A stretch of DNA of 64,000 bases from a virus: the IMG/VR virus record IMGVR_UViG_3300007517_000005, positions 1 through 64,000 of that record; one strand, given 5' to 3'. Positions 6,593 through 54,604 of this stretch are shown piece after piece. A model generated the notes under the pieces. It made no database searches and was not told where the DNA came from. It saw nothing but the letters and a program-made list of their open reading frames with translations. How positions within the stretch are numbered: position 1 is the first letter of the stretch; each line of letters starts with the position of its first letter. The position numbers were made by a program, and so were the translations under genes.

Positions 6593-7948
6593 CTAACACT
6601 CCATAACTGAACATGGATCTATACGCTGATTATTATTATCGTACACTTCCAAATGTAAGTGGGGGCCGGTACCTCTGCCAGTATTACCCGTATAACCAAT
6701 AAGTTGCCCTGCCTTTACAGAGGTGCCATCTGCTAAGCCTGCATACCTATCCATGTGTGCGTAGAATGTTTCCCCTATACTACTGCCTGGGTGTTTAACA
6801 GATAACCAATTACCATAACCCGCTTCTACCCCTTTCTCTCCTATCACACCATCTGCAGGCGCATATATTGGGGTACCAATTGGTGTACCGAAGTCTACTC
6901 CTTGGTGCATCCTACCCCAACGCATACCCATTGGTGATGTTAATGGGAATCCCTTGACTGGGTTATTCAGACTGCCTGCCTTTGGGGGTGTTGTATTGCC
7001 TCCCATACTCGGCTTAGAACTACCTGTGTTAGAACTACCTGTGACAGTCGCCACAGTGGTCTTCGTACTCATTGAGCCATACATAGGCGTAGTAGATTGA
7101 CCACCCTCTATTCCTAATGTAGTGACCTTTAATGTACACCCCCTATATATCTTACCCATCTGCATCGTCCAATCCCAGGGCGCAGTCTTCGTACAATCTC
7201 TTGTGTACGTCCCTATGATTACTGAGTTATTATTGGTACCGAGAGAGGCTGGAGCACTACCTCCACCAGGTGATGTACCACTCTTGTCTAGGGTAGTAAA
7301 CCCCTTATCGCCACCTATTGCTGGAGGTGGTAAACCTGATAGAGAACCATTAGTGGGTATACCTATCTTCTGCATAGCATTTACTATCTCATCCATCCTC
7401 CTCTTCTGATCTTCAGAGTGCTTCTCCATATTCGCCCATAACTCGGGGTGCGATACGCCTGTTGGATTAAATCCATCTACACCGACCCCTGCATCCCCTG
7501 CATATATTCGTGCTTGTAATAATGTATCTGGAGTTATACCATTCTTAGCTAAGTAAGGTAGGGTAGGAATAAACCCCTCCCTTGCCATCTTTGGTGATTG
7601 ATTCCATATATCTAGATAACTAGACATCAATAAGGTGTTAGTTGGGTCTAATCCAGCACTACGCATTAGAGGTGCCACCCTCTCCGCCTCCGCTTTTAAT
7701 ATAGGGTGGTACATGCGATCGGCCTCCTCTGGACTTGAACCTTTATAGTAAGCCCCATTGACTGAGTAATTACCTACATTCCAGGCACCATTGCCGGGGT
7801 CTCTATGCCCATCGTAGGGCCTAGTACCATCAGACAGTACTGTAAATCCCCCATCAGCAGTCCTATTACCTTCTGCCATACCAATAATCCTACCTATAGG
7901 ACTATTGATAGCTCCCCCTGCAAATAGTTTATCTATCCCTTCATCCAT
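6593..7948 (-). CDS. Virion-associated lysin: N-terminal lysozyme-like domain plus C-terminal M23 peptidase
   Basis: M23 motifs HQGVD, YAHM, TGRGTGPHLHLEV; N-terminal AEGNRT..GHxDPGNG domain. Confidence 0.85.
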   Translation of the reverse strand: MDEGIDKLFAGGAINSPIGRIIGMAEGNRTADGGFTVLSDGTRPYDGHRDPGNGAWNVGNYSVNGAYYKGSSPEEADRMYHPILKAEAERVAPLMRSAGLDPTNTLLMSSYLDIWNQSPKMAREGFIPTLPYLAKNGITPDTLLQARIYAGDAGVGVDGFNPTGVSHPELWANMEKHSEDQKRRMDEIVNAMQKIGIPTNGSLSGLPPPAIGGDKGFTTLDKSGTSPGGGSAPASLGTNNNSVIIGTYTRDCTKTAPWDWTMQMGKIYRGCTLKVTTLGIEGGQSTTPMYGSMSTKTTVATVTGSSNTGSSKPSMGGNTTPPKAGSLNNPVKGFPLTSPMGMRWGRMHQGVDFGTPIGTPIYAPADGVIGEKGVEAGYGNWLSVKHPGSSIGETFYAHMDRYAGLADGTSVKAGQLIGYTGNTGRGTGPHLHLEVYDNNNQRIDPCSVMEC

Positions 7949-8544: not shown

Positions 8545-9069
8545 CTACTGAACACCTACCCCAAAGTATATCTCTTTCTGTGGCTCCCACTTATTTACAT
8601 CCCTCCACAACCTATCCATATCTACTAAACATGGATCTCTCTCAGTAACTTCAGGGTCTAGTACCTCATCATGCAATACCACCTGTGCCCTCTCTATACC
8701 CATCTGAGATATCAAGTATGACAGCGAGTAATATATCTCTACTGTGTACGGCATAGGCCCTTCTAAACATATAGAGTATGCGAACGGGTCTACACTACCA
8801 TTAACTGATTCCCCTAAGTATGATGATGGGCCGCATGCTGACGCTTTAACGTACGCAGGTACTAGGTACACTATCTCCCCATCCCTACGTATTACGGTAT
8901 GGTAACTGGCCTTAAACCTATCATCTAATGACCATGATAAGGCACCCTCCGCAGGCCCATTAGAGTCATGTAATACTACTATCGGTACGCAAAGGCCCGT
9001 GGATATAGCACTCCCTGGCAGTCGCAGCCCTGCGGCACCTCCCCTAGGGTCGTGACCTACAGCACTCAT
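8545..9069 (-). CDS. N-acetylmuramoyl-L-alanine amidase (Amidase_2-like)
   Basis: IVVLHD, ASYHTVIRRDG, SICLEG, VVLHDE and RDP motifs; two 9-aa micro-element insertions at the N-terminus. Confidence 0.75.
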   Translation of the reverse strand: MSAVGHDPRGGAAGLRLPGSAISTGLCVPIVVLHDSNGPAEGALSWSLDDRFKASYHTVIRRDGEIVYLVPAYVKASACGPSSYLGESVNGSVDPFAYSICLEGPMPYTVEIYYSLSYLISQMGIERAQVVLHDEVLDPEVTERDPCLVDMDRLWRDVNKWEPQKEIYFGVGVQ

Positions 9070-11063
9070 ATAGCTTTAACCTCTACATTCTGTAAGGTAG
9101 TAGGTAATGTTAACTCCTGCTCGGGTGTACTATTGCTAGGGCCGCCCATCTTACCTAGGTTACGTATCTGACTAATGGCCTCCCTTATAGAAGCATCTGA
9201 TACTGCATCCCCTTGCGGCTTGGTACCATCGACACCTCCCTTACCCGTAGTCACTATATACCTACTACCGTCTACCTTAATTACCGCACTATTGGAAGCA
9301 GATGTGGATGTACCTCCTACCTTATTATATTCAACTGACACACCATCTACAGTCCTATTACCATTGAAAGGGGTCTCTGACTTACCCAGTGACTCCCTGA
9401 TAACTATCTGCATAGGGCCCTTGTACTCTATCAAATTACCCATGGCCTTAGTCACATCATTGGTACTACTTCTATTACTCCCCTGGGCTGCCACATTAGG
9501 TGTGTTCAGGTAATTACTTAATGTTGTATTCTCATACCCACGTGCCTTTAACAAGTTACCTATAGCTGCATTTGGGGCGGTAGCGGTACCCTCTCCAGCC
9601 ATCGCCTTCACAAGGGCATTAGTTGCTGTATTATTACTATCCTTTAACATCATCCCCACTAATTGCTGCGGGGTGTATGACTTCCCTAGCATACCCTCTT
9701 CACCCTCCCCTATAGTATCCTTAGTCACTGTAATAGATGCTGGTAAGTCCTTAGATTGTGTCACTAGGTCGGCCACCTGTAACTTAATAGTAGAGGCCAT
9801 TGGTATCGGCTTATCACCACCCTCACTCCATGTATCCCCACCTACCTTACTAATGGTCATAGCATCGGGCGCCTTATCCCCTAGCTTCTCCATTAACTCA
9901 TCTACCTCTATAGCATTCCTGCTACTCTGTGGTGGTTTACCTGTAGTAGACTCCTTGGGTATTGACGTATTCATCTTCTTTTTATCCTTACCCTGATTAG
10001 GTGCCTTATCCTTACCAGGTGTAGTACTGAAAGGCTGTGTTACCTTCTTCTCAGTACTAGCTATACCTGCACTGAGGGCCGCAGATGATGAATTACATGC
10101 CGCACTAGCCTTCCTATAATCCTGTGCTAACTTATATAGTTCATCTAGGTGGTACTTCACACCCATGGGCTCACCCCAATCAAGGGATGTCCTATCTAAC
10201 TGTGATAAGTCTTTAGTGTACCCTACTGGTTTACCCGTATTCCAATTAGACATCACACCCTTATCATCTTTATCAGGGGCCGCTTGTAATGCCTCCTTCA
10301 ATGCCTCGTACCTACTTGCGTAATACTCTGCCTGTTGCGCTAGTGCAGTGCACTTGGTCTCATTCCCTGATAGCGCTAATAGTACTATCTGCCTATCCGC
10401 ATACACAGAGAAGGTATTCTTTGTGTAGTAGACTATATCCCCCCCTAGGGTTCGTATCTCTACAGACCCAGGCTGCGGCCTCTCCTTAGCCTTATCACTC
10501 AACTCCTGCTTATACTCGGAACGACCATACCCTGATATTAAGTTATCCATGGGCGTAATACGTACGTAGTCCTCGGGGCGGGCTACTACATAAGGGAAGC
10601 TAGGGCCTGGGTTACCTACCCTCTCCCCCTGGAACCCTTTATCTACATTGAAGGGCTTCGGTACTCTCCCCTTGAGCATGAAGTTATCATAATCCCCCGA
10701 TAACCTCACACACCCTATAATATACCCCTGATCGAATACACCATCCTTACATAGGACTAGTACTGGTGTACCATCCATTAATGGTTCACGTACACCTGAG
10801 TAATCTAAGCCTGCATTCGGTAGTACCTGGGAACAGTTATGGATTACTACCTCTCCGCCCCCCTCATCGTGCATATCCGTTAAGGATACATTGTATGTGG
10901 AGGTTATATGGTGTGACTCCATGTGTGGGTACCCTATTACCTTCCCCATTAAGAGGCGGGTATAACCACCCCCTACTACTCCCTGCCCATGCCCATACTC
11001 CTGTAACCCATTCATGTTAGGGGGTAGTTCACCGAAGTAGTCCGCTACATTAGCCATATACAT
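9066..11063 (-). CDS. Baseplate spike/gp5-like protein with C-terminal serine beta-lactamase/PBP-fold domain
   Basis: N-terminal OB-fold-like GTPVLVLC..G..DQGYIIG; C-terminal ASTIK (SxxK), SNN (SxN), KVG (KTG-like). Confidence 0.7.
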   Translation of the reverse strand: MYMANVADYFGELPPNMNGLQEYGHGQGVVGGGYTRLLMGKVIGYPHMESHHITSTYNVSLTDMHDEGGGEVVIHNCSQVLPNAGLDYSGVREPLMDGTPVLVLCKDGVFDQGYIIGCVRLSGDYDNFMLKGRVPKPFNVDKGFQGERVGNPGPSFPYVVARPEDYVRITPMDNLISGYGRSEYKQELSDKAKERPQPGSVEIRTLGGDIVYYTKNTFSVYADRQIVLLALSGNETKCTALAQQAEYYASRYEALKEALQAAPDKDDKGVMSNWNTGKPVGYTKDLSQLDRTSLDWGEPMGVKYHLDELYKLAQDYRKASAACNSSSAALSAGIASTEKKVTQPFSTTPGKDKAPNQGKDKKKMNTSIPKESTTGKPPQSSRNAIEVDELMEKLGDKAPDAMTISKVGGDTWSEGGDKPIPMASTIKLQVADLVTQSKDLPASITVTKDTIGEGEEGMLGKSYTPQQLVGMMLKDSNNTATNALVKAMAGEGTATAPNAAIGNLLKARGYENTTLSNYLNTPNVAAQGSNRSSTNDVTKAMGNLIEYKGPMQIVIRESLGKSETPFNGNRTVDGVSVEYNKVGGTSTSASNSAVIKVDGSRYIVTTGKGGVDGTKPQGDAVSDASIREAISQIRNLGKMGGPSNSTPEQELTLPTTLQNVEVKAI

Positions 11064-11079
11064 TTACTCCCTATAGTTA

Positions 11080-12948
11080 TTAGTAATCAGCTACCGCCCT
11101 TATGCGCGTGGTGAACCCTTCATCACCACCTTGCGTAGATAATATATGTTGTACTAATCGTACCTTATATACAGGTAATACCCACGCAGATGGGTCACTA
11201 CCCTTATTAGTTGTAGGGCCTCTACCTGCGTCTACCTTCACTAGATCCTGTACCTTAAAGGGCTTCTTACCCTTATTGAACTCCATGTCCTCACCATAGG
11301 ACTGTGCTTTTAGTTGCTCCTTCTCTAACTCCTTCAATGACTTAGGGGAGCCGTCCATTATAGATGTACCTTCATCATGTAATACAGTACCCCATACCTT
11401 GATAGCCTCTGATGGGTACAGTGTGGGGTCACCTAGTACTGTTATCTCCACACCTTCTATATCCCTACCCCATAACCTAGCCGCTGATAGGGCCGTCACT
11501 ATTGCACCACCCACAGGGTTACCGTATGTAGATAAGGCCGCATCCTCTATTATCTGTGTGCGGCACGGGGGTGATATCTTCCTCCCCTCAGACCCGAAGC
11601 TAGAGAACTCCATCGTCAATTGTACAGAGTCTAGGAATGATCTATTACCGCCATTAGCCTCTGGATTAATGACCACTAACCTATTGAAGGTGGCTACTGA
11701 ACTACTAGATGAGCGTAGTGATAGTATCATCTGATTGGGTAATGGCTTCTCTATACAGTCCGGTACCGTGCGGAAGAAGTAAGTCCTATACATCCTATGC
11801 TCATCATCAAACCCACTAGTATCCAGTACCCTGGGCCCGAATACATAATCACCATTGATGTGTGAGGCGTAGAAGTCAGTCACTCTCTCCTCATGCGATG
11901 CGAGGTACTGTAGTACTTCTAGTGGGGATCTCTTATATACCTGGAATGTGGCAGCCATGTGTGACTTCTGCAACGGTGGTCTCTGCACCCACACATTCAA
12001 TCTGGGGCTAGCATCGGGTCTCATTATTGAGTGCGTACACTTCCTCAACCATAGCGCTGGATCCTCTTCAGGGGATATATCAGGCCCATCATCTGCATTC
12101 TTATTCTTCCACTCAGGTGCCCTCTTCGTCACATCCCCCGCCCCTACATATGCTGTATATAATAACCCCCCATCTTCTTCCTTACCATTAGCCTTCCTCC
12201 CATCCGTATATGCACCATATACCTTCTTCCAGCAACTAGATGCACCCTTATCATCACCCCCTGTCACGTATAATTGACTCGTGGTGGCACGGTATATGTC
12301 ATATATAATCTCATCCCTCCTACCAGTGGCACCACCTTTACTCCTTGTGTCCTGCTTGGAACCTATTAGTGATGGTATCGATAGTATCTTCGTATCCGCT
12401 AATACCCTCATCCTATCCCTACATTGCAGTATTAATTGCACCCCACCCTCGGCAGTACCTACACAATGTATCGTATCTATGAACCCCCAGAATATAGGGC
12501 AGAGAGGCTTATCAGGGTCGTGCTTCCATCCAGGGCTATCCTTACCAGGTATGAGATCCATCGCCCTCTCATCTAACATCTCAACGCATAGGGGCGTACT
12601 GTGTGAATCAATGTACCCAGCGTAGATGCGTATCTCATCATCCTTTGATAGGTATGGATAATTACCACCCCTATACTTCTTCAGGTTAGGTAGGGGCGGC
12701 AATGTATCTGTACGTGAGGGTATTGATGTAGTCAATGTTATCTGCGCCTGCGATATGTTCCAGTCCCTAACTGTAGTCACTCTCAGACCACGTATTACCC
12801 ACTTCAAGGGCACATCCTCACGTACTGTCTTATTGGTATCACTATACCCATATTGCGTAGTGAATAACACCGGCTGTATATTATTAGCCATAGTTGCAGC
12901 CGTTATCATGGCCGCTGGCACAGGCTGTTGAGTACTGAATGTCTTCAT
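11080..12948 (-). CDS. Baseplate hub (gp27/gpD-like)
   Basis: IFWGFID, QCRDRMRVL, ITVLGDPTL and YKVRLVQHILS..GFTT pattern; position. Confidence 0.7.
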   Translation of the reverse strand: MKTFSTQQPVPAAMITAATMANNIQPVLFTTQYGYSDTNKTVREDVPLKWVIRGLRVTTVRDWNISQAQITLTTSIPSRTDTLPPLPNLKKYRGGNYPYLSKDDEIRIYAGYIDSHSTPLCVEMLDERAMDLIPGKDSPGWKHDPDKPLCPIFWGFIDTIHCVGTAEGGVQLILQCRDRMRVLADTKILSIPSLIGSKQDTRSKGGATGRRDEIIYDIYRATTSQLYVTGGDDKGASSCWKKVYGAYTDGRKANGKEEDGGLLYTAYVGAGDVTKRAPEWKNKNADDGPDISPEEDPALWLRKCTHSIMRPDASPRLNVWVQRPPLQKSHMAATFQVYKRSPLEVLQYLASHEERVTDFYASHINGDYVFGPRVLDTSGFDDEHRMYRTYFFRTVPDCIEKPLPNQMILSLRSSSSSVATFNRLVVINPEANGGNRSFLDSVQLTMEFSSFGSEGRKISPPCRTQIIEDAALSTYGNPVGGAIVTALSAARLWGRDIEGVEITVLGDPTLYPSEAIKVWGTVLHDEGTSIMDGSPKSLKELEKEQLKAQSYGEDMEFNKGKKPFKVQDLVKVDAGRGPTTNKGSDPSAWVLPVYKVRLVQHILSTQGGDEGFTTRIRAVADY

Positions 12949-12970: not shown

Positions 12971-13468
12971 ATGAGAGTCATTACTGGTAACTTACTAGAT
13001 ATAACAGAAGGTACAATAGCACACCAGACTAATTGTATAGGCTTAGCCGGGCCCGTACTCGCTAGATCTATTGCTATTAAGTACCCGGAGTGGGAGGCAG
13101 TATATAAAGCTGTATGTCGTCGCTATACAGTAGATAAACTTATAGGGCAATTACATCTATACCATGCGGCACCTCCCCAAGGGTCGTGGCCCACGGCACT
13201 CCTTGGCAGTCGCAGCCATGCGGCACCTACACTAACCATAGCATCACTGTTCGCACAGAAGGTACCAGGCAGGGGTTTGATGACCGACTATAAAGCACTA
13301 GATTATGCCCTCACCCAACTCAATATGAAATCCTCCCCCACTAATCCCATATACCTACCATATGGGGTAGGGTGTGGGAATGCGGGAGGGGATTGGGGTA
13401 CGGTACAGCAACTCATAGAAGTTAACTGCCCCGATGCTATACTAGTTAAATTACCGTCTAGTACTTGA
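12971..13468 (+). CDS. Macrodomain (ADP-ribose processing; TARG1/DarG-like class)
   Basis: GNLL..IAHQTNC.G, IYLPYGVGCGNAGGDW; carries an 18-aa double micro-element insertion. Confidence 0.85.
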   Translation: MRVITGNLLDITEGTIAHQTNCIGLAGPVLARSIAIKYPEWEAVYKAVCRRYTVDKLIGQLHLYHAAPPQGSWPTALLGSRSHAAPTLTIASLFAQKVPGRGLMTDYKALDYALTQLNMKSSPTNPIYLPYGVGCGNAGGDWGTVQQLIEVNCPDAILVKLPSST

Positions 13469-13534: not shown

Positions 13535-14344
13535 CTATAGAAGTACATTGGTAGAGCGTTGTACTTGACCTGTACCACCATTAGTTACGAAACCACCACC
13601 AGTAGCGCCGTACTCTTCAAAGCGTCTAGTCTTAAAGTCTTGAATGGTCACATCACGGTAGCCTATACCTTCGGCCACACCTTCCCAGCGGTATGCGACA
13701 ACCCTTCTACCAGGCATGGCGCCCATAGACCAGTTATCCACCTTCGCACGGAAGATGGTCATCATACCTTTAGACTTAGGCCCAAAGTCCCCTGCACGTT
13801 GCGCGTACTGGTTCTTACCGAAGTTTGTGAACTCATCAGACCCATACCTGTAGAAGCTCTGCGACCCTACATTCTTAGCAGTCTGTTTAGCTAGATCTGG
13901 GGACCATGATGGGTCAGTCTGGTGGTTCCTATCAAACGTACCATCTCCTGTCTGCTTATTGGCGTACGTTAACTCAGGGGCATTGACATCATAACTGATC
14001 TGGAACCTAGGGCCCCTTGTTATGAACGAATCACGACGTAGCATGGCCACCCCGAAGGTACGCTCAATGACATTCCAGTCAACAGCTCCCTGTTCTAGTA
14101 CCCACGCTATCTGAATCTCTCCATCTAAGTGGATGGGGATACGTTGTCCTAACTCTAGATATGTCTCTGTAGCATTACGTACTGATACCGTCAATGATTG
14201 GAACTTACCGAACCATGCGACTAATCCCGTACATACATCCTGTACCCATAACTCTACATCGAAACCCTGTAGGGGGTCATAGCCTGTGTTATTGACTGGG
14301 CTACAGTACAGACTATTCTGTAAGTTATACGCGCTATCTGGCAT
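13535..14344 (-). CDS. Tail tube protein (putative)
   Basis: Directly downstream of sheath; beta-rich 269 aa. Confidence 0.65.
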   Translation of the reverse strand: MPDSAYNLQNSLYCSPVNNTGYDPLQGFDVELWVQDVCTGLVAWFGKFQSLTVSVRNATETYLELGQRIPIHLDGEIQIAWVLEQGAVDWNVIERTFGVAMLRRDSFITRGPRFQISYDVNAPELTYANKQTGDGTFDRNHQTDPSWSPDLAKQTAKNVGSQSFYRYGSDEFTNFGKNQYAQRAGDFGPKSKGMMTIFRAKVDNWSMGAMPGRRVVAYRWEGVAEGIGYRDVTIQDFKTRRFEEYGATGGGFVTNGGTGQVQRSTNVLL

Positions 14345-14466: not shown

Positions 14467-17289
14467 CTAAGAGGTAGGGCGCACTATCTGAAAGTTATCC
14501 ACCATGTACACGTCAATGTAATCGGCAGCACCAATAGGTAATACAGATATACGTATCTCTATCTGGAAGGGGCCAGGTGACATTACCTGTGGGGCGCTAT
14601 AGTTCTGGATGACACCCAACCTATTAAGGTCAGAGAAGTACGCCTCTAAAGCAGTAGATATCTGCCTCACTAACTTAGAGGTCAGGGGCTCACTCTTATA
14701 CCCCTGTAGCATCTGCCATACATCCATACGTACTGAGTCATATGTCCTCCGCTTCACTACTATATCCCCATCTAACGTCTGCCCCGTTAGGAAGAAGTAT
14801 GTATTAAAGCTCTTATCCATGTGTATGACCTCTAACTGTGCATCAGCTAATGGCTGTAACTGTTGCTTAGTAGATATGGGGCGGGTATCTACCTCAGTTA
14901 CACCTATGACGGGGCCACTGCTAGTACGTGCATGTGGTCCTACATAGAATGGGATAAGGGATAACTTACCTGCATAGAATGCGTCAGGTGAGGCGGAGAA
15001 CCTAGGAGCATTAGGTTGCCCTGCATAGGTACACCATCCAGCTACCATTACCCCACGCTTTGATCTATAGCCTTCCGTTACCGCTCGTGCAGCCTCTGGG
15101 CGCACCCTCGGTGGTGCATTCAAGATAGCAATACGTAACCCCTCATACTCAGTTGCTCTCTCTGCCTGCGCTAATAGAGCCATCTTAATGGCATCACTAT
15201 CCCAGATGCCAGGTGTCAGTGTAATGTGCACAGGCTCACCATCCGCTAAGGATATGGCGCGCGTGTAATCTTCTTCCTCTGGTATAGGGCCATCGTAGCC
15301 ATCTTCTAACGATACATTCTGTAAGTATTCAGGGCCCGCTGCTGTTGGGTTCCTGGGATCTTGTGTGCCAGAGTACCTCTCATCAGGTGGCGCTAACCTC
15401 ATAGGGGAACGGTACAAGAGGTTCACGTTGTAGCTATCAGGGTTGAATAGCTTAGGTAAGAATAACCCAGCCACGTGATTAGACCCTACTAGATCCAATA
15501 GATTACCACTAGCATCACTATTTATTAGTGATACATTGAATACCTCGTCCCTAAGAGGGGGGTTGTAGTTATCTTTATTGAGGTCACGCACTGTCACCCT
15601 AAACTTAGTTGTAGTAATTGGGTACACAGTTACACGGAGAGAATTACCCCACGCACCCTCAGACGTAGCATATAGCCTGAATAATGGTGTGCCTGATAGA
15701 TCGTAGAAGTCTCTGTACGCACGTCTAGGCCCATCATAACCACCTGTCATGTACGTCATGTTGTACCAAGTATTATTGGTGAATGACATACCCAATTGAT
15801 TAGCGAACCTAAATATACCTAGGGAATCAAATGTACTAGAGATAGGCTTATCTAACCATACCTCCGCCAGGTTACCCCATAAGGGTACCTCTACCTTCAC
15901 TACCTTTGTACCCGGTTGCAAGAATGTGGGGCTGGGCTCAGGGCCCGATGGATCTTGTGGGTTGGAGAAGTGTAACTGCCCATAGAGGCCACCGCCTTCT
16001 ATCTTCTCGACCCTAGACCCTATCTTAATGTATGTGGCATACTCTACAGGTACGTGGATATACTTCTCCCCTGCGTAGAAGGCTGCCTCCACTATCACCT
16101 CACCATCTGGGTCTACTGCCTCCATCCAGTACCCGAACCTATTACCTAGTGCTCCTTCTAACTCCTCATCCAGGTAGAACATGAAGCCATCATCAGTCTC
16201 TAATCTCTCTACCCTATTCAAGGGATTCTTACCTTGGAGGGCGGCCTCCATATAAGTCACTACTTGGTTGGGGGCTACTCCCTCGGGGACATCTATCTCA
16301 AAGCGTGAGGCATTCAATCTCACAGACCACGCATCACCCACCTCTAAGTTGATCTTCTGATTGGGGCCCAGTGCACCGAAGGTAATGAATACCCCTGCGT
16401 GTACACCAATGGGGCGACCCGCATCAGTGAAGATATTCACAATGAACTCTTCCTGCGCCGGTAACCTATACCATAAGTTAGTATCAATATACTCACCTAG
16501 AGGGTTCATGATCACCCCTAACTGATCAGATGCAGCACCAGATTGGAAGTAATTATACTGCCCCGGGGGTAGGTACCCTAGCGGATTGACATCTGGTAAT
16601 GGGTAAATAGGTACTGGTAATAGACGCGGGCAGATGCGTATCTTACCCGGTACTGCAGGGCCTGGGTAAGGGTCTAACTCTACCCCAGGAGTGGTTGTAT
16701 CTGGTACTGATAGATCATCGGGCACTACATCATACCCATCGGGTATAGTACCATTATCCTCAATCTCATAGCACTCTCCGTGCATCCAATTGATCTCATT
16801 GTAGACACCCTCGGGTACGAATAAGAACTTCACACGCGCGAACCCATCCTCATCTACATTCATTACACGGAACCATAGCCTACCTGAGCAATCACATGTA
16901 GGTACCCCTGAGAATGTAATAGCAGCCTGGCACTGTCTATCAGTTCTATTAACGAATACGCCTGTGTACCGTAAGTGGAGGATTAACTTATTGGGCTTGC
17001 TAGTGATACCATTGAAACGTATCTGCCCCCTCGCAGACTTACCATTACCTAATACCCGTATAAGAGCGAACTCTGATGCACCCTGGTTATAGGCTATTTG
17101 ATACGCCATACTACCGCGCTTGGTATTACTACCGTACGTGGTCGCGAAGTCATCAAACCCACCTATGTAGCGCAATGTGCGTGGCCCCCTGGAGAACTCA
17201 CCCACGATGAGGATGCGGTTCCTTACATTCTGCCCTATGGGTGTGAATGATTGGGTTATCTCTGTGATCTTGATCCGTGGTACTAACAT
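14467..17289 (-). CDS. Contractile tail sheath protein
   Basis: IVGEFSRGP...FATTYG, ATSEGAWGNSLRV, L.GGxDG, and C-terminal IRISVLPIGAADYI. Confidence 0.9.
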   Translation of the reverse strand: MLVPRIKITEITQSFTPIGQNVRNRILIVGEFSRGPRTLRYIGGFDDFATTYGSNTKRGSMAYQIAYNQGASEFALIRVLGNGKSARGQIRFNGITSKPNKLILHLRYTGVFVNRTDRQCQAAITFSGVPTCDCSGRLWFRVMNVDEDGFARVKFLFVPEGVYNEINWMHGECYEIEDNGTIPDGYDVVPDDLSVPDTTTPGVELDPYPGPAVPGKIRICPRLLPVPIYPLPDVNPLGYLPPGQYNYFQSGAASDQLGVIMNPLGEYIDTNLWYRLPAQEEFIVNIFTDAGRPIGVHAGVFITFGALGPNQKINLEVGDAWSVRLNASRFEIDVPEGVAPNQVVTYMEAALQGKNPLNRVERLETDDGFMFYLDEELEGALGNRFGYWMEAVDPDGEVIVEAAFYAGEKYIHVPVEYATYIKIGSRVEKIEGGGLYGQLHFSNPQDPSGPEPSPTFLQPGTKVVKVEVPLWGNLAEVWLDKPISSTFDSLGIFRFANQLGMSFTNNTWYNMTYMTGGYDGPRRAYRDFYDLSGTPLFRLYATSEGAWGNSLRVTVYPITTTKFRVTVRDLNKDNYNPPLRDEVFNVSLINSDASGNLLDLVGSNHVAGLFLPKLFNPDSYNVNLLYRSPMRLAPPDERYSGTQDPRNPTAAGPEYLQNVSLEDGYDGPIPEEEDYTRAISLADGEPVHITLTPGIWDSDAIKMALLAQAERATEYEGLRIAILNAPPRVRPEAARAVTEGYRSKRGVMVAGWCTYAGQPNAPRFSASPDAFYAGKLSLIPFYVGPHARTSSGPVIGVTEVDTRPISTKQQLQPLADAQLEVIHMDKSFNTYFFLTGQTLDGDIVVKRRTYDSVRMDVWQMLQGYKSEPLTSKLVRQISTALEAYFSDLNRLGVIQNYSAPQVMSPGPFQIEIRISVLPIGAADYIDVYMVDNFQIVRPTS

Positions 17290-21527: not shown

Positions 21528-22814
21528 CTAGTAAGGCATGAAGTTTAAGTCACCTTGTAGCGAGAGGCGATTATTGATGTCCCCTATAGATGCTACTGTC
21601 ATGTGTACCACACGGTATGGATACGTCAAGTAAGGCATACCTGCATTACCCATTTGTAGGTACATGCCAGGGGCCGCAGGTATATGCGTCTCCATATTAG
21701 TCCTAGACCATATGCCCGGCTTACCATCTGGACTCTCACCAATACAGAACTGTGTACGACCAGGTGCTTGTGCCTCACCCGATGGACTCTTCTCACTAAT
21801 GAACACTACCTTGTTCTTAGGCCAGATACGCTTATTGATGCCATCTACAGGGTCAATGAACTGTGTATCTACTTCACGAATCTGCAACCCTGCAATGGCC
21901 GTAATCATACCATCAGGGCCGAATTGAATGAACTGACTGTACTGACTGGTACCACCTTGTTCAATATTCAATCCACTGCCATTCTGGTACATCATCATCT
22001 GCCCAGTAGACCATCGAGAGATGTTACTAGTTGATAACACAGACCTTAACTCTGGTGACATATACATTGCCGTCAAGTCTGACTTATGTGTCATCTTGAA
22101 CCAGTGCTTGATGGCTTGGATAGTGTATACGTAATCACTGTATGGGTCAGCCCACGAGATACCTACATTCTGGGGGTTGATGGAGTTGGTGTCCTCGAAT
22201 GACCTGAATACACGGGCCTCATTCCTCCCCCCTATACCAGTAGTCACGTTATAACTGAATAGGTTATACGCAGGTATATTACTCGCTACATCTGTAAACA
22301 CTCCAGTCCTAGGGTCTGTATAGCGTATACCACCCAGTAACATACGTGCCCTGAACACATCCCATGTAAGGTTATGCTCCGCTACCATCGTGGCAATCAT
22401 CTTCTGGATCTGCTCACCAGTAGGGTATGGGTCATTACAATTCCTTACCCTGTTATTGATCTCCCCATAACATAGCGATGTACTCTGCCTAATGAATAGA
22501 GGCTGTACATAGAACATCCTCTCCCTACCATAGTTTGGGCCTACTAATACGTCGGGCTTACATGGGAGTACAATTGGGAAGATAGTGTGATTGGGCTCCA
22601 TTGATTGACGCACCACTACAGTCTGTGCTTCAATTGTCTCTACCGGGAATAGCTCCGTCAATGGAGTCACACCTAGCATGGGGATGTATGATTCCGCTAA
22701 CTCTGTGAATACACGCCCCCATTGCGCTTCTGTAGTGCCTGTCGTAACCCATGGAGAGATGTATGGTCCAAAGTTATAAGGCCCGTTAGGTTGTGTCTGT
22801 AATCCTTGTGGCAT
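21528..22814 (-). CDS. Major capsid protein (HK97 fold, gpE-like)
   Basis: 428 aa following the protease; LFP..T, ARMLLGGI.Y, IWPKNKVVF and GMPYL.YP pattern. Confidence 0.8.
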   Translation of the reverse strand: MPQGLQTQPNGPYNFGPYISPWVTTGTTEAQWGRVFTELAESYIPMLGVTPLTELFPVETIEAQTVVVRQSMEPNHTIFPIVLPCKPDVLVGPNYGRERMFYVQPLFIRQSTSLCYGEINNRVRNCNDPYPTGEQIQKMIATMVAEHNLTWDVFRARMLLGGIRYTDPRTGVFTDVASNIPAYNLFSYNVTTGIGGRNEARVFRSFEDTNSINPQNVGISWADPYSDYVYTIQAIKHWFKMTHKSDLTAMYMSPELRSVLSTSNISRWSTGQMMMYQNGSGLNIEQGGTSQYSQFIQFGPDGMITAIAGLQIREVDTQFIDPVDGINKRIWPKNKVVFISEKSPSGEAQAPGRTQFCIGESPDGKPGIWSRTNMETHIPAAPGMYLQMGNAGMPYLTYPYRVVHMTVASIGDINNRLSLQGDLNFMPY

Positions 22815-25796: not shown

Positions 25797-27227
25797 TTAT
25801 GAGCCTATACTAGGCTTTGTACTATCTACAGTCGGTACCGCTGCTGCTTGTTTACTACGCTTCTTACTCCTGGGGAATGAGAGTAGGTCACGTACATGAT
25901 TATTATCTATATCATCTGAAGAGTCTATGTACCCTTTATCGGTCATCATGGCTATTGCATCTACTAATACCTTAGTCTCACTCCACCTTATTGGTAACTG
26001 CGGTAAGTCCCCGTAATCGTACGCTGCAGGAACAACCCTAGGATCGAAGTTGTACTGTATTAACTGCGCTACTACTGATGATAGGAAGTCCTGCGTAACC
26101 CTCTGATATATGCTCGTTATGAAGTGGTGGTACATCTCCACCTGCCTCTCCGATGACTGCCCTGAACCTAACCCACTATTAGTATCTCTCATTATTAAGT
26201 TGGGTATGTTCAATCCCGTCATCATCTGCAGGTCGCACATATTGATGGCATCCGTAAAGGCAGATGCAAAGTTACTACCGGTAGTCAATGCCTCTAACTT
26301 CACGGGCTGGTCTACACTTAACTGTGTCAACACTAACCCCACTTCACTCCTCATCTCCGATAGTTCCCTCGCTACTACCTCATGGTAGAACATAGGCCTA
26401 TCCTCTGTAGGGTGCTGCTCATCTGATTGCTGTATTGGTACTATCGCATATACTATCGGGGTGCCATACCTATCCAATGCCACCATCATTAGATCTAATA
26501 TAGACCTCTTGAATAAGTGGTACTCAAATACTGCTGTCAACATGGACTCACCCTCTGGGTTATTGCCCATCCCCTCGTGCACTGTGTGGCAGAACTTGCC
26601 CTTATTTAATCTAACCCATCCCCCTACTGTAGATGTATCCATGGGCTTGGGTACCCATATACCTGTCTGATTGAAGTCCATACCTACTGATGTAGTATTA
26701 GGTACTTTCTCCCCATGCGTTAACATACCATTAGCATTTACTACATACCTGACTTCTGTCGGGTGGTACGTTACTACATCAGTTAACCAAGTCTGTGCCT
26801 CAGATCTAGGTCCTATTTTACCACACCATATGGCTTCCCCTAACCCATCCCCCGCCCATAGACTTTGATACGTTAGATCCTTCAACCACTTCTTCACACC
26901 CCCCTTTAAATTAGCTGCTACAAACTCCTCAATCATAGGGTGTGAGTGTGCGAAGGGGCCCGCCATTGCCGCTACAGAAGAAGCAATCATATTCAATGCC
27001 TCTTTAAAGACTGGCTCATTGATCCTAGCGTAATCGTATGCCGCTAATAAACCAGGGTCTCTGCGCCTCCTCGTCTGGAATGTCTCCCCTGTAGATATTA
27101 AAGGGGTCGCGCGCCCCAACATACCCATCTTTCTTGGTTGTCTCCTTATTAGAGCACTAGTCCCCACGGGGGGTAATGTACTCAACCCTGATTCCTTACC
27201 GCCCGTCGGGTGCTGATCCATTATCAC
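25797..27227 (-). CDS. Portal protein (DUF935 / Mu gp29-like)
   Basis: NNPEGESML...FK....M..ALDRYGTP; LIQYNF. Confidence 0.85.
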   Translation of the reverse strand: MIMDQHPTGGKESGLSTLPPVGTSALIRRQPRKMGMLGRATPLISTGETFQTRRRRDPGLLAAYDYARINEPVFKEALNMIASSVAAMAGPFAHSHPMIEEFVAANLKGGVKKWLKDLTYQSLWAGDGLGEAIWCGKIGPRSEAQTWLTDVVTYHPTEVRYVVNANGMLTHGEKVPNTTSVGMDFNQTGIWVPKPMDTSTVGGWVRLNKGKFCHTVHEGMGNNPEGESMLTAVFEYHLFKRSILDLMMVALDRYGTPIVYAIVPIQQSDEQHPTEDRPMFYHEVVARELSEMRSEVGLVLTQLSVDQPVKLEALTTGSNFASAFTDAINMCDLQMMTGLNIPNLIMRDTNSGLGSGQSSERQVEMYHHFITSIYQRVTQDFLSSVVAQLIQYNFDPRVVPAAYDYGDLPQLPIRWSETKVLVDAIAMMTDKGYIDSSDDIDNNHVRDLLSFPRSKKRSKQAAAVPTVDSTKPSIGS

Positions 27228-27306: not shown

Positions 27307-28190
27307 CTACATCTTTGGTAATGCTATGTCGTGGAATAGACTCCTCTGTGGTGTCCTATCTTCCATAGCTTGCTTGATCTCATTAGTCTTCTCCTGCGTC
27401 TTCTTCTCACGCTCGGAGATAAACCCATTCACGGCCTTGACTACCGCCTTTCTATCGAAGAACCCTAACTCTAACCAACTTTTACCTAGTGGCAGTGATG
27501 TCGCATTGGCTATCGCTACCCAGTTATCTAACTCTAATCTCTTAACCGTATCCTCTACGGTGTAGATTATGTGAGCCTCCCATATATTGGGGATCTCTGG
27601 GTCGTACTCTGCTACTAGATTACAAAACCTACGCGGTATGAGTCTACTACGGGAAGCATACCCTGCCTGCGGATCCTTTAAGTGTAATGGTAATGCTACA
27701 CGGCCCTCACTATAACCTAGTGGGGCCGCTGCCCTTGCATACCATGCCGTAGCATCTCTTAAGGTGTGCCACCAGGGGCCTTCGCAGGAGACCTTCTCCC
27801 ACCAGATGCTGGGGGAGTGGCCATCGATGCCATGAGCTTTTTTGCCTGCTCTTGCGCCTGCGCCCTTAACTTATCGTCAATGAATGCAATCGTCATGAAT
27901 AACTCAAGGAAGTACTGTACCTCCTTCGGGTCCCACTCCATAAACAATTGGATTGGGTCTCTCCCAAACTCTACTTGCTGACCCATCTCATCTACTACAC
28001 GCTGCCCATCTACTTCTACAATAGATGCCGCTGCCATTAACTCCTCTAATGTATAACCCTGCTCCCTTGGATTATTACCCGCATACGATTGATACTGCTT
28101 TGCCAGATACACACGATCCTCGAATGTGAACTGCCGTACCTTGACCTCACGGCCCGATGGTAATACTACTGGGTATAATACTGAATCCAT
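27307..28190 (-). CDS. Tail assembly chaperone -1 frameshift fusion (gpGT-like, about 294 aa)
   Basis: The -1 frame is open for 177 codons from the slippery site (27840) to TAG at 27309-27307 with no usable upstream start. Confidence 0.8.
27759..28190 (-). CDS. Tail assembly chaperone (gpG-like)
   Basis: V.LPSGREVKVR..T..D N-terminus; slippery A AAA AAG at 27843-27837. Confidence 0.75.
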   Translation of the reverse strand: MDSVLYPVVLPSGREVKVRQFTFEDRVYLAKQYQSYAGNNPREQGYTLEELMAAASIVEVDGQRVVDEMGQQVEFGRDPIQLFMEWDPKEVQYFLELFMTIAFIDDKLRAQAQEQAKKLMASMATPPASGGRRSPAKAPGGTP

Positions 28191-28339: not shown

Positions 28340-31300
28340 TTATCCTACCACGTTTACTTCCCAATCATCCCCTTCTGAGTAATCACTCTCACCACTTGGG
28401 TATGCACTGAAGTCCGTAGTGGGATTATCCATCACATACGATACCTCTATAGCCGCTCTCATAGGGTCTCCATCATCATCCATTACCGTACCCTCACCCA
28501 CTTGCGCTAATCTCTCCCCTATCATATCCTGCCTCTTTGATTCTGTTTCTGACATACTCCTCACGAAGCTCTCTACAATGCCTAGTGATGGTATTAAGTT
28601 AGTGCCATGCACTGCTACCTCCCCCCCTATTACGGATGTGAGCATCCCTAGTACAGATGATAGTACTGCACCTCCTAATGTATTGGAGGCCGCCTTCCAC
28701 CCCTTGTACCTATCTACATCCATAGGTCTATCTACACGTAAGGGGCTAAACTTAGATAGTATCCTCTCCGCACCACCCATAATGGCAGGGGCTATTACCG
28801 CTGCACCCATAAAGAACCCTACCTCTCTACCAACCCATCTCCTTACCCACTCCCCCTCATCCTGTGAACCCTTAGACTCCGCATGTGCCATCCTCGCTCT
28901 AAATGATTGCCCTAGTACTGACGCCACACCTGGTCTACCCATTTGCGAGTACCCTAACATCGATACCGTCCCACCCACTACCTGCCCTATTGTATTCTCG
29001 TTGATAGAGCCGGTCGCCATTAGTGAACCTAAGAGTGTGAGCCCTGCACCCAATACCATGTCATTCATGTCGTGCATCCTACCTACGGCATCGTGCATCT
29101 CCTGACTATGCCTTGCATGACTAGCCGCCTGAGCTCCTGGATTCATGCCCGTTAGTACTGCCCTAGGGGGATTTGATGTTACTGCCTGTGCCCTCAAGGC
29201 AGCACTAATTATAGGCGTAGACGCATCGCCCATCTCTCTACCCCGTATCTCTCTGGTCTCCGCCTGGTGCAGTGGATCTCTTGCCTCTACTATGGCCTCT
29301 TGTGACGCCTGCTGCGCTGTCATACCCTTGGATACCTTCTGCTCGGATAGTCTCCGGATGGTCGCTGATAATACTTCAGCTTCTGGTAATGATGCCCCTA
29401 ACGCACTACTGATTGTGCCAGCCCATGATTGATCTGAGTGCATGGTCTGACTATTGAACGCATCCCCTATATTATCTAGTAATCGTCTCCTCTGTCCTGT
29501 TGATGTAGCCTCTAATGCTACATCCAAGAACCCCATGGGGGAGCTATGCTCACCTATCACCTCCCCCGCGCTATTCCTTACATTGAACTTCCTATAACTC
29601 TCCCCCTCCCCTAATGGGTCATCATGGTACCCTACACGTATACCCCCATCCTTCTTATTGATGACCCTTACGCCTACACCACTCACACTATTCAACTCAA
29701 GGAAGCTCCTACCACCTTGAGTCTGACCTAGTACCTGCTCCATACCTGTACTATCGCCCATGAAGTCCTTCATCACGGTCATGTAATGTGAGGCAGCCTC
29801 TGGGTCTATGCCATTCATACTACTATTCATTAGGGCTATCGTTATATCTGTATCCGCTAACTCCGTTGATATGCCTGACATTGTCTGAGACCTACCGCCC
29901 CCTAACTTCCCTGCCTTCTTCCTCAATGTCTCTAATGTGACGAACTGATTCAATCCCTCCCCTACACTACCGAAGATAGGGTCTGTCTGTTTCCTCCCTT
30001 CATCTACTAACGCCAGCATTAAGGCCTTGTTCTTGCTCGAAGCTTCATCCCACCACTCATTCGCATCCTTTGATAGGGCCGCCCCTATGTCAGCCTTCAA
30101 TGAGGGGTCGGATATGAACTTCCTATCCATAGCCTCATCCCGATCCACATCCTCCCCAACCCCTAAGAAGCCACGTATGCCACTCCATATTGTATCTAGG
30201 AATGGTTGATTGTCTTTTGACCCTAGTTCGTAGCGGAAGGCAGTAATCGTAGCTCTCATGTCCCTCGCTACTTTGTACCTGACTACATCCCCAATAGTCC
30301 CATCTGATACATCCACACCCCTATCGCGCATCTCACTACTCAAGCGCGTCATCTCCTCATTAGATGAGATCTTGTACTCCTTACTCAAAAATGCTATAGA
30401 ACTATCATCTATGCCTGTCAGGGGCTTACCATATACATTATTACTTGATGTCTCTATCAGGGTACTTAACTGCATGTATGACCGTAATCCAGGGCCAGGG
30501 CCTAACTTACCCGCCATCTCACTCAAGACTGCCCTCGCACTCGCATCATCCCCCTGGTCAATGTACTTCTGGTACTCCCCATGTGTCTTCTGTAAATCAC
30601 CTAATACATCCGTGTCCCCCTTGAATTTGATACTATCCCTTAGTAGCTGCTGTGCACTCTTCATGAATGCCTGCAATGACTCCGCTCTCTTCGCCTCTAT
30701 ATGTACCTGATTGAATGTCCCCTCTACATCATCTGCCATAGTGGTACCAGCATAGTACTCCTTCATACTATCCATCACGGTACTGCCACCCTCACCGCCT
30801 AGTACATGCGATAGAGCTATTAAGGGACTATCGCGGAATAAGGTACCCACTAGGGCATTGTATGACTTACCTAATATGTCACCGCCCGCTACCCCTAATG
30901 TCTTCGTTAACATGTCATATACTGTGGGGCTCATTGATGCACCACTACCCATACCCATATACTTACTGTAATTGGATACTGCTACCTCTGATGATGATAG
31001 TTGGGCCGCACCCTCCATTAGGCTACTACTTACATCCTGCTCAGGCTTAGCTAAGATAGACTCCATCATCTTAGTTATTACGTCTGCTCTCAATGATGGG
31101 TTGTTTGTTAATAGCTCCCTGAAGTGATTATCAGACACATCCTTCAACATCACTGACGTATCTATATTGGAGGTAGATAATGCCTCACTTATTGATGCAC
31201 CCTGCTTGAGTGATGATAATGCACTTCTGAAGTCCTCTGTTGCATGTATAGACTCCATCGTCGCATGTAACGCCATGATGTTATTATCGTGCGCTACCCC

Positions 31301-43699: not shown

Positions 43700-44948
43700 A
43701 TGAAAAGAGCACTCGTTGAGAGACATACTGTACTCCTCGCTACAGTCGGCAGTATCGCATATGGTCTGACATTATCTACCTCCGATAAGGATATCAAAGG
43801 CATCTGCATCGCACCCGCTGAATATTACTACGGTCTCAAACAGTTCGAGCAGAAGGATAAAGGCTGGGATGATACAACAGATCTCTCAAGTGGTCTATTC
43901 CCAGTCCTTGATGGTATTAAAGACTGCACTATATATGAGCTCAAGAAGTTCCTCCGCCTGGCCATGAATAATAACCCCATAGTACTGGAGATGTTATGGC
44001 TCAACGATTATGAGTACTTATCTACAATAGGGCGTGCACTTGTTCGTAGTAGACATCTATTCCTATCCAAGAAGGTCAAGCATACCTTCCCAAGGGTCGT
44101 AGCCTACGGCACCTACATAGGCTACGCATACGCACAACTGAAGAAAGTATCTACACATAAGTCATGGTTACTCAACCCCCCTACTGCTAAGCCTCAAGCT
44201 AATGACTATGGCTTAGATGATGCACACCTCCCTGTCGGGAGTGCTAACGACCTCCCTGTCGGGAGTGCTAGCAACGCTGTGAGCGTAGCGACTAACGACC
44301 TCCCCTTAACTAAGAGTCAGATGGGCTCATTCCTAGAGTACATACTAGTGCTCACTAAAGATAGTATTGAATTCATGGAACCCGTGGCTGAACTCAAGAA
44401 GCTACTACTCGAAGATATAGACCTTACCGCTATCGTTAAACAGAGACCACTAACTACTGATGTTATACCCTATGTGCAGGCATTGACACGTGGTAGTACA
44501 AACTTCATGCAATTACTACAAGCTAGTCAGGCTTATAGGAAGGCTATCTCTGAGTGGGATAACTACCAACAATGGAAGACTAATAGGAACCCAAAGAGGG
44601 CCGCACTTGAAGCACATTGTGGGTTTGACTCTAAACATGCTGTGCATAGTGCCGCATGGCTGCGACTGCCAAGGAGTGTACGTCTATTACGTCAAGGTCT
44701 TGAGGTGTTACTACATGGTACCCTCACTGTTGATAGGCGTGGTTGATAGGCGTGACGCGGGTGATGCACCGCAGTTACTCGCTATACGTAATGGTGAGTA
44801 TACCTATGAGCAAGTCATTGAGATAACTGATGCCCTATTCCTAGAAGTAGATGAGGCTTATAAACTATCCACTCTACCTCATGGGGTGCATCAGGAACAT
44901 ATAGATATACTGTGCACACAGTGGGTGCGAGATAGTCTGAGTAATTAA
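43700..44948 (+). pseudogene. DNA pol beta-superfamily nucleotidyltransferase (RlaP/Nuc-transf-like), frameshifted near the 3' end by a 13-bp tandem duplication
   Basis: GSIAYGL...SDKDIKG, NNPIVLE, KHAVH..RLL, LLAIRNGEY; gttgataggcgtg x2 at 44729-44754. Confidence 0.85.
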
Positions 44949-53842: not shown

Positions 53843-54604
53843 ATGTTTAATATATCACTGACCACCGCTACATACAACCCGACGGCAGCTACAGGCATCA
53901 AGAGAGCCATCTACACCTACTCTCAAGATAATAGGGTTATTAAGTCATCCTCCAAGAAGAGAGTCCTTAAGCTGCGTGGGAAGAGGGTTGCTAATGGCCC
54001 CCTATATAATAATGAATCCCTACGCGCACCATTAGATGAGATATCTACTTCTATACTCACGATAGTCGGTGTACTGTATATGGGTGCAGAGAGGAAGTCT
54101 ACAGTGCCTGTACAGTGGGTGCAAGATAGACGTGGTAACTGGAGACGGGCTATCACACAGAAGGCATTCAGAGCTCTTCCACAGTACATGCAGCAGATCG
54201 CTATAGATAAAGGCGTGGATGTTAGAGGGAGTGTTACCTTCTCACGCTGCGTAATGGCGTGGGCTGGTATTACTGTCAGTGGTCTCGATGTACACCACGT
54301 CAATATGGATACTACAGATGACCGTCTCGGGAACTTACAGGCATTAACTAAGGCTGAACATGCTGCCGCACATGCTGATAAGGATGACCTCCTATGGGAT
54401 GCTGATTGGTACGAGTACAACTCATACTGTGAAGGACTGCTGCGTATTAATCAGACCTTCTTATTGAGTGATGAGGATATCGCAGTAGCTATAGCGGCTG
54501 CATTAGAGCCTCCTACACACGAGATAGAAGAACTATCTGATGCTGATCGGTGGGACCTGGCATGGGCTGCAATGTGGGCTGACGAAGAGATAGAGATAAT
54601 GTAA
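53843..54604 (+). CDS. HNH endonuclease with acidic C-terminus
   Basis: DVHHVNMDTTDDRLGNLQALTKAEHAAAH. Confidence 0.85.
   Translation: MFNISLTTATYNPTAATGIKRAIYTYSQDNRVIKSSSKKRVLKLRGKRVANGPLYNNESLRAPLDEISTSILTIVGVLYMGAERKSTVPVQWVQDRRGNWRRAITQKAFRALPQYMQQIAIDKGVDVRGSVTFSRCVMAWAGITVSGLDVHHVNMDTTDDRLGNLQALTKAEHAAAHADKDDLLWDADWYEYNSYCEGLLRINQTFLLSDEDIAVAIAAALEPPTHEIEELSDADRWDLAWAAMWADEEIEIM

Follow-up and report, generated by a model that had tools for sequence, protein, structure and literature searches.

What is the function of the giant protein encoded next to the portal gene of a cyanophage? The question arises from the 64,000-nucleotide window analysed here, positions 1 to 64,000 of the IMG/VR virus record IMGVR_UViG_3300007517_000005 and thus the first 64 kb of an 85.5-kb viral contig with a completeness estimate of 51%. 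The minus strand of this window carries an open reading frame (ORF) of 3,897 codons at 28340-40033, running from a GTG start at 40033 to a stop at 28340-28342; all features of the protein given below lie on that strand. An alternative ATG at 40027, two codons inside the frame, is an equally plausible start, which leaves the exact start uncertain by a few codons, and the consensus N-terminus of the homologues is M-S-I-Y-K-K-L-R. With a probability of roughly 0.6, we read the 3,897-aa product as a giant multidomain protein that travels in the virion, enters the host along with the DNA and is built around a single-chain two-barrel RNA polymerase (RNAP) core. Kinship of the core to two-barrel polymerases is very likely; that the virion brings the protein in to transcribe early genes is favoured by a smaller measure. 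Proteins of this kind are probably virion RNA polymerases of the single-chain two-barrel type and form a new family of them.

The phage itself has a contractile tail and is related to phages of Microcoleus and Microcystis, in line with its earlier description as a probable cyanomyovirus. Its nearest isolate is Microcoleus phage My-WqHQDG (83% identity in the head protein, 61% in the giant protein), and the Microcystis phages Ma-LMM01, MaMV-DC, and MaMV-DH01 stand further off (42% in the head protein); a nucleotide search of the phage collection gave no match to the window. The giant protein matches phrog_31006 (E 3.9e-92), a 3,562-position profile with no assigned function that represents the family of Ma-LMM01 gp080 (YP_851094, 3,562 aa). 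In BFVD/UniProt gp080 is named 'PLD phosphodiesterase domain-containing protein'; it has never been annotated as a polymerase, and we found no description of the gp080-type family as an RNA polymerase in the literature searched. BLASTP against gp080 returns collinear segments (9e-92, 1e-30, and 1e-5) that cover aa 160-3880 at ~24% identity and break at aa 2227 and 2604, around a lineage-variable insertion (aa ~2250-2600, 32234-33286) where alignment occupancy falls to 0.05-0.5. The two proteins share the PLD head, the DFDGD-type loop and the hydrophobic C-terminus. They differ in that the window protein has an extra ~250-380 residues in this region (aa 2227-2604), much of which gp080 lacks, and spells the loop DYDGD rather than DFDGD.

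The family comprises about 45 giant proteins of 3,000-5,400 aa. Seven close relatives, 2,622-3,810 aa in length, came from a word-based search, and the Pfam domain PF13091 is present in six; when 1.84 billion representatives were searched in full by HMMER with aa 2100-3299, 38 clusters emerged (at 50% clustering), nearly all again of 3,000-5,400 aa. For comparison, 18 related loci were taken from IMG/VR, and residue conservation was counted among 37 divergent representatives of the family.

Six polymerase-like motifs had been singled out in the original prediction, and the coordinates in the translated ORF confirm each of them: GMYSDY (35912-35929, aa 1369-1374), GSRVDSGTSLFKGVAV (35387-35434, aa 1534-1549), and DIFGLVNP (aa 1579-1586), all likened to the beta subunit, followed by the beta-prime-like RLRG (33590-33601, aa 2145-2148), VFRSAP (31871-31888, aa 2716-2721), and DYDGD (31694-31708, aa 2776-2780), a putative Mg-binding aspartate triad. 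The proposed order of beta before beta-prime also stands, with the beta-like region preceding an invariant DxDGD loop. The pattern G-D-[FYWVL]-D-G-D occurs in 43 of 43 full-length relatives and is missing only from two short fragments; the family consensus of this catalytic-type loop is DFDGD, and the DYDGD of the window is a minority spelling. D2776, D2778, G2779, and D2780 are each present in 37 of 37 representatives, and K1545, the lysine of the FKG motif, in 36, so that neither the loop nor the lysine, on whose conservation the original prediction staked its case, is lost among homologues. Nearly as constant are L1543, R2718, and G2723 (36/37 each), R1536, K1590, P2721, and G2148 (35/37 each), and H1596, G1369, and D1373 (34/37 each), and the same key residues are kept in all 13 loci compared. 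Mean column identity in the family alignments is low, at 16-29%; the residues that are kept despite it therefore mark positions under strong selection, and the invariance of aspartates and basic residues among members that share ~20% identity would argue for retained catalysis.

Predicted structure points to the same conclusion for the beta-like half. In an AlphaFold2 model of aa 1000-2199, built with 22 sequences (mean predicted local distance difference test score, pLDDT, 68.2; predicted template-modelling score, pTM, 0.55), a beta-rich core at aa 1359-1589 lies within a module that resembles the second-largest subunit of RNAP (aa ~1137-1824, 34562-36625). Among the top listed matches of a Foldseek search of this model against the PDB, 50 of 50 are second-largest RNAP subunits (E 5e-3 to 4e-2, probability up to 0.99, 256-540 columns). 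They include the subunits of plant Pol IV/V, of Pol I/II/III from yeast and human, of archaeal enzymes, and of phage AR9, and on the bacterial side those of E. coli, Thermus, Bacillus, Mycobacterium, and cyanobacteria. RNAP second subunits likewise rank first in an unbiased VIA-align search of 48,161 chains, with scores of 8.4 for NRPD2, 8.3 for A135, 7.4 for both the plastid beta subunit and Pol III, 7.2 for Xanthomonas beta (341 residues aligned), 7.0 for AR9, 6.9 for vaccinia, 6.6 for African swine fever virus (ASFV), 6.4 for phiKZ, and 5.8 for 7dww, a designed double-psi beta-barrel (DPBB); the only other matches are helical hairpins of 65-85 residues and two short barrel-like matches. The best match in BFVD is a piece of Ma-LMM01 gp080 itself, below which the entries with a probability >0.3 are mostly viral RNAP second subunits from pithovirus, mimivirus, poxvirus, baculovirus, ascovirus, iridovirus, and phiKZ-like phage. 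The individual scores of these fold searches for the modelled half are modest. Since all three agree on one subunit and offer no competing long match, a beta-type module appears to be the only reasonable reading of the model. The proposal that structure prediction and Foldseek would uncover double-psi beta-barrels is thus supported for this half, for which a DPBB-containing fold of the second-largest RNAP subunit is predicted.

The conserved residues of the beta-like half fall on this predicted fold. GMYSDYFYANP (35897-35929, aa 1369-1379; cf. GYNFED), the putative first conserved loop of the beta-like barrel, sits between model strands E362-367 and E375-378 and has G1369, D1373, N1378, and P1379 conserved. 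The segment GGSRVDSGTSLFKGVAV (35387-35437, aa 1533-1549) contributes R1536 and K1545, a candidate basic pair of the beta-type barrel; both residues are invariant in family alignment A6 and are placed by the model on strands E537-540 and E547-551. It is followed by DIFGLVNPSNLKSFSLEHG (35243-35299, aa 1579-1597; cf. DIVLNPLGVPSRMN), with G1582, N1588, K1590, S1591, H1596, and G1597 conserved. Upstream of these, a K-x2-Q-x2-QR-x-KN-x2-G motif (36356-36403, aa 1211-1226) has K1211, Q1214, Q1217, R1218, K1220, N1221, and G1224 in 33-36 of the 37 representatives, all invariant in alignment A6, and is a possible fork-loop equivalent.

For the beta-prime-like half the case is drawn from motifs. A candidate second half of a beta-prime-type barrel (aa 2714-2790, 31664-31894) comprises FRSAPFG (R2718, P2721, and G2723), N2742, R2757, and the DxDGD loop. 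Comparison by hhalign with a beta-prime profile (the beta and beta-prime profiles are proteobacterial and were built from 59 rpoBC loci) aligned NPxS..LGDFDGDxYTxIF with HPLVC..NADFDGDQMAVHV over 32 columns (E 1.1e-3, probability 21%), and the flanks of the loop appear weakly to resemble beta-prime. One of 13 members also gives a weak match (E 0.0046) to the Pfam RdRP family PF05183, a QDE-1-type, two-barrel family. Immediately after the DxDGD strand a long helical hairpin is predicted (aa 2783-2876, 31406-31687; model helices H684-720 and H726-777), for which the structural matches are generic coiled coils. Further downstream (30620-31339) lie the family-invariant motifs QQSRGLFGG (aa 2899-2909), LGxAGGxILGKxYN...DSP (aa 3043-3070), and QLLRDSIKxK (aa 3129-3138), which may be the equivalents of the bridge helix or trigger loop.

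Several results weigh against a polymerase. The first half of the beta-prime barrel is a tentative placement of our own at aa 2137-2182 (33488-33625), a segment that includes RLRG and in which R2182 is conserved and G2148 is invariant in family alignments A2 and A7; the placement needs an insertion of 340-530 residues, and hhalign of the segment against the proteobacterial beta-prime profile found nothing. An AlphaFold2 model of aa 2100-3299, built with 23 sequences, reached a mean pLDDT of 58.7, with the candidate barrel segments at 2123-2178, 2706-2737, and 2757-2788 all below 50. Foldseek searches of the PDB and VIA-align searches with this model returned coiled-coil matches and no polymerase, because the barrel segments did not fold; the second barrel is a candidate by its motifs, which the model neither confirms nor refutes. 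Searches by sequence profile were similarly negative. Pfam gave nothing on the whole giant protein and only PLDc_2 on six pieces of it. PF00623 (RNA_pol_Rpb1_2) and PF00562 (RNA_pol_Rpb2_6) have no match in the record up to E 10, and both find matches in 14 of 14 control genomes. Searches of PDB sequences by phmmer with the whole protein and by profiles of the beta and beta-prime regions gave keratin and coiled-coil noise or nothing, and hhalign of the family found nothing in the proteobacterial beta profile. Against P23-45 gp96, the family profiles align only a 17-residue DFDGD stretch, to which the sequence similarity between the two is limited. Taken together, no sequence-profile method links the giant protein to RNA polymerases. 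From the published side, sigma-70-like promoters have been reported for all three temporal classes of Ma-LMM01 (PMC5780444), and the genome of MaMV-DH01 is stated to lack an RNA polymerase (PMC9927357). The single-chain two-barrel RNAP of the original prediction is accordingly upheld in part: its beta half has a predicted fold and its DxDGD loop is invariant, whereas the beta-prime barrel, with pLDDT below 50, was not recovered.

The lack of profile matches places the gp080 family in the same situation as P23-45 gp96, which was found through a conserved DFDGD in a giant structural protein and is otherwise without detectable similarity to RNAPs (PMC10770324). The failure of every profile search against RNAP families and the unconfirmed second barrel are also what would be expected of an enzyme with no relation to RNA polymerases, in which DxDGD is a metal-binding loop of another kind and the beta match arises from a medium-confidence model. 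This explanation is highly improbable. Three independent searches (Foldseek against the PDB, VIA-align, and BFVD) converge on one subunit, matched over 220-340 residues in bacteria, archaea, eukaryotes, plastids, and six virus groups, and no other class of protein gives a long match. The conserved residues lie on predicted barrel strands, the motifs run from beta to beta-prime, and the flanks of the DxDGD loop are beta-prime-like. Nor is the core a polymerase of the T7-like kind found in coliphage N4, a candidate we rejected; Pfam shows no such family, and the evidence from the fold leads away from it.

If the core is a two-barrel polymerase, the next question is where it acts. The giant gene heads the same-strand structural module of the window, the module in which the original prediction had placed it, and adjoins the portal gene (25797-27227, minus strand, phrog_113). 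This adjacency holds in five of five loci checked (the window, L008, L013, L017, and L021), in either orientation: in the four distant loci the giant gene is divergent from the portal gene, and it is co-directional only in the lineage of the window. The gp080 gene of Ma-LMM01 also adjoins the portal gene and a small frameshift cassette and is divergent, in contrast to the window, where the giant gene is co-directional with the structural genes. Expression does not begin early. No gp080 reads were recorded at the first two time points of Ma-LMM01 infection, before 3 h, and the gene is expressed afterwards; its subclass, B5, is also that of the portal gene gp083 (PMC5780444, supplement). A polymerase produced at that stage could serve early genes only by entering with the particle.

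The composition of the protein is also consistent with delivery. There is no cysteine in the giant protein of the window and none in 164,535 residues of 45 family members, where base composition alone would lead one to expect ~109 cysteine codons in the giant gene; of 11 other proteins of the virion module examined in the window, 10 contain 2-8 cysteines. Ma-LMM01 gp080 has one cysteine. P23-45 gp96 is likewise without cysteine, but so are the portal and capsid proteins of P23-45. We infer that the absence reflects selection on a protein that passes in extended form through the tail and the oxidising periplasm, and as a clean signature it could help to find other ejected proteins. The termini are equally distinctive. 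A very basic N-terminal tail (aa 1-45, 39899-40033) has 19 K/R and a single D/E among the first 60 residues. The C-terminal region contains three Gly-rich hydrophobic segments (aa 3659-3678, 3734-3759, and 3784-3809; 28607-29059) with Kyte-Doolittle peaks of 1.5-1.7 and with G3669, G3675, G3687, Y3695, and E3737 conserved among representatives, and it ends in an acidic tail (28343-28522) with 15 D/E and 2 K/R in the last 60 residues. Portal linkage, expression timing, the absence of cysteine and the termini together suggest that the protein is packaged in the virion.

A two-barrel polymerase that acts in the infected cell without being packaged, whether it transcribes some of the middle or late genes, works in the manner of a primase, or makes regulatory RNA, would draw on the same fold and motif evidence, with its place beside the portal gene being incidental. 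The assignment of gp080 to a 'middle' subclass alongside replication genes, and its divergence from the structural genes in Ma-LMM01-type genomes, would suit such an enzyme. We consider it quite unlikely, given that the portal adjacency persists in both orientations across the five loci, that 164,535 residues contain no cysteine, and that the conserved hydrophobic C-terminus and the basic N-terminus have no obvious use in a cytoplasmic enzyme. The size of 430 kDa is, moreover, typical of packaged polymerases such as N4 gp50, crAss gp66, and P23-45 gp96.

N-terminal to the core lies a domain of the PLD superfamily (aa ~205-640, 38114-39421), detected as PF13091 PLDc_2 with an E-value of 7.4e-8 and 32.7 bits (cut-off 27). 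It contains two HKD halves, formed by H309/K311/N325 (39059-39109) and by H581/K583/S613-N615 (38189-38293), and both HxK...N sets are kept in 30-33 of the 37 members. No earlier description of a PLD-polymerase fusion was found in the literature searched.

The neighbourhood of the giant gene raises the further question of whether the protein is a tape measure. Between it and the portal gene lies a small ORF of 143 aa (27759-28190, minus strand, phrog_32670), which has a slippery A AAA AAG at 27837-27843 and a -1 frame that stays open for 178 codons, as far as the portal gene (the pair spanning 27310-28190). Ma-LMM01 has this heptamer too, again with a long -1 frame (gp081, with gp082 lying in that frame); in a further locus, L005, the product of the -1 frame is conserved but the heptamer is not. 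The arrangement resembles a chaperone cassette of the G/GT type in an unusual place and may serve the giant protein. With the 143-aa ORF and the C-terminal part of the giant protein as queries, PHROG and Pfam showed no family of tape measures or chaperones. Genes of these two kinds are missing from the interval that separates the tube-like gene (13535-14344) from the hub-like gene (11080-12948), the usual stretch in which one might seek them; the gap holds an ORF on the plus strand (12971-13468) that matches phrog_335 'phosphatase' (E 1.2e-19). The 622-aa product of the hub-like gene was considered as a tape measure and rejected for its 8 cysteines and its mixed-fold, hub-like appearance.

These observations bear on a third explanation, in which the giant protein has chiefly a structural or ejection role, as a tape measure or an internal 'ejectosome' protein with a PLD head, and the polymerase-like module is a relic or serves to grip or thread DNA. 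The missing genes between tube and hub, the frameshift cassette that adjoins the giant gene and is conserved in Ma-LMM01, the mostly helical character of the C-terminal 1,100 residues with their hydrophobic end, and the failure of the beta-prime barrel to fold in the model would all suit such a protein. It is unlikely nonetheless. The aspartates and the beta-type basic residues are invariant at ~20% identity, and neither the giant protein nor the small ORF matches tape-measure or chaperone families. Ma-LMM01 and MaMV-DH01 moreover have a separate 1,359-aa 'putative tail protein'. At ~1.5 Å per residue, by our estimate, 1,359 aa would suit a tail of ~200 nm, and the counterpart of this protein in the present phage would lie beyond the end of the contig. 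The gene order is also unorthodox for a tape measure, with the giant gene beside the portal gene. P23-45 shows that a tape measure and an active polymerase can coexist, so that this alternative overlaps with a virion-packaged polymerase; a tape-measure role for the giant protein as such seems doubtful to us.

For the packaged polymerase, the domains would follow one another as a basic N-terminal tail, a PLD hydrolase with two HKD motifs, the two-barrel RNAP core, a long helical region, hydrophobic Gly-rich segments, and an acidic tail. The core would be a fused beta/beta-prime pair, in which the beta-type module (aa ~1140-1830) supplies R1536 and K1545, and a beta-prime-type segment ~1,200 residues later supplies the DxDGD metal-binding loop with D2776, D2778, and D2780. 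The protein would be made at middle to late times and loaded into the particle near the portal or, in a less likely variant, housed in the tail lumen as a tape measure. At infection it would leave through the tail, an extended passage through the oxidising periplasm for which the absence of cysteine is suited. The hydrophobic C-terminus would then anchor it in the membrane, the polymerase would transcribe the first phage genes without recourse to the host's RNA polymerase, and the PLD domain would act on host nucleic acid or phospholipid. As to the templates, the early-promoter logo of Ma-LMM01 is based on four promoters with two palindromic hexamers 16-18 bp apart, and a five-gene cluster, gp037-041, forms an expression class of its own (PMC5780444). 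A logo drawn from four sequences leaves room for a phage enzyme, and either the early promoters or the gp037-041 cluster could mark the templates of a phage polymerase.

A more elaborate version of this scheme, which we offer as speculative and on the whole improbable, would unite all these functions in a one-chain 'infection machine'. Here a tape-measure or tail-lumen protein would be loaded by the adjacent frameshifted chaperone and ejected unfolded, its C-terminus would enter the cytoplasmic membrane, the PLD domain would cut host nucleic acid or lipid, and the polymerase would transcribe the first genes and pull the genome in. The polymerase would have been derived independently from RNAPs of the multisubunit type and not from the QDE-1/crAss type. 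In that case the phage enzyme would be the reader of the palindromic early promoters of Ma-LMM01 that were reported as 'sigma-70-like'.

The remainder of the structural module follows the giant gene on the minus strand, with genes for the major head protein (21528-22814), the sheath (14467-17289), baseplate proteins (9066-12948), and an M23 peptidase (6593-7948) in addition to the portal and tube-like genes. Neither a sigma factor nor a second polymerase was found in the 85.5-kb record, which is 51% complete. The non-structural arm on the plus strand includes an RlaP-type nucleotidyltransferase (43700-44746, E 3.3e-14), an HNH endonuclease ORF (53843-54604), and a weak GGDEF-like match (62808-63422; 22.9 bits against a cut-off of 23.8). 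Outside the window, the contig carries a second giant ORF on the plus strand (64794-74555) that encodes 3,253 aa with 36 cysteines, an Ala/Lys-rich N-terminus, and hydrophobic segments; it has a HELMH metalloprotease-type motif at aa 1022 (weak phrog_87 match) and an AAGNNGDSDGD stretch at ~aa 2775, and no Pfam family was found in it. A paralogous relation between the two giant proteins was rejected, as BLASTP detects no similarity and the second has its 36 cysteines. Just upstream of the second giant ORF, at 64109-64762 on the plus strand, is a small protein-kinase-like ORF (Kdo/WaaP E 4.5e-7; Pkinase 2.7e-6).

Among described systems, coliphage N4 gp50 (~3,500 aa) is analogous in size and presumed role, in that it is carried in the capsid, leaves together with the DNA, and performs early transcription. 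Its fold is that of the T7-like, single-subunit (right-hand) polymerases, which are unrelated to the two-barrel enzymes. YonO is among the closest described systems. P23-45 gp96 (PMC10770324) is similar in being a giant virion protein in which DFDGD is almost the sole sequence clue, with both barrels in one chain, transmembrane segments, no cysteine, and a possible link to the tape measure; for the window protein the place in the virion is the likely one argued above. The polymerase of gp96 differs in occupying the N-terminal 1,200 residues in compact form (aa 327-1124). P23-45 is a siphovirus, its protein has a metallopeptidase instead of a PLD domain, and its gene stands in the tail module; gp96 is not among the listed structural matches of the beta-like model.

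The crAss-like phages, cited in the original prediction as a precedent, turn out to fit poorly. Gp66 of phi14:2 (PDB 6VR4) and Neurospora QDE-1 are, like the proposed core, single-chain two-barrel polymerases, and phi14:2 gp66 is packaged in the virion of a podovirus, transcribes early genes, and has a DFDID motif. In gp66 and QDE-1 the barrels are joined by a connector of ~140 residues, whereas K1545 and D2776 of the window protein are 1,230 residues apart, and its best structural matches are the multisubunit beta/Rpb2 subunits, including those of AR9 and phiKZ, not gp66 or QDE-1. The non-virion enzymes of AR9 and phiKZ (PDB 7S00 and 7OGP) and the cellular RNAPs are in turn split into two to five polypeptides, unlike the window protein, a single polypeptide that also includes a PLD domain and membrane segments and has no detectable sequence similarity to them. 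The gp080 family would thus be set apart by its occurrence in non-jumbo contractile-tailed cyanophages, its PLD fusion, the 1,230-residue spacing of its motifs, and a predicted beta module of the multisubunit kind.

Work on phages of bloom-forming Microcystis takes Ma-LMM01 and its relatives as its models, and cultured phage-host pairs exist, which makes the idea directly testable. If true, it would overturn the published view that these phages have no RNAP of their own and rely fully on the host enzyme (PMC5780444, PMC9927357), and a packaged polymerase would change how the early programme and the unusually 'silent' takeover of the host are read. It would also extend injected single-chain two-barrel polymerases to ordinary contractile-tailed phages and add to them a third lineage with an architecture of its own, whose predicted fold is closer to multisubunit beta/Rpb2. 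Such a lineage would bear on the repeated simplification by viruses of polymerases of the cellular type.

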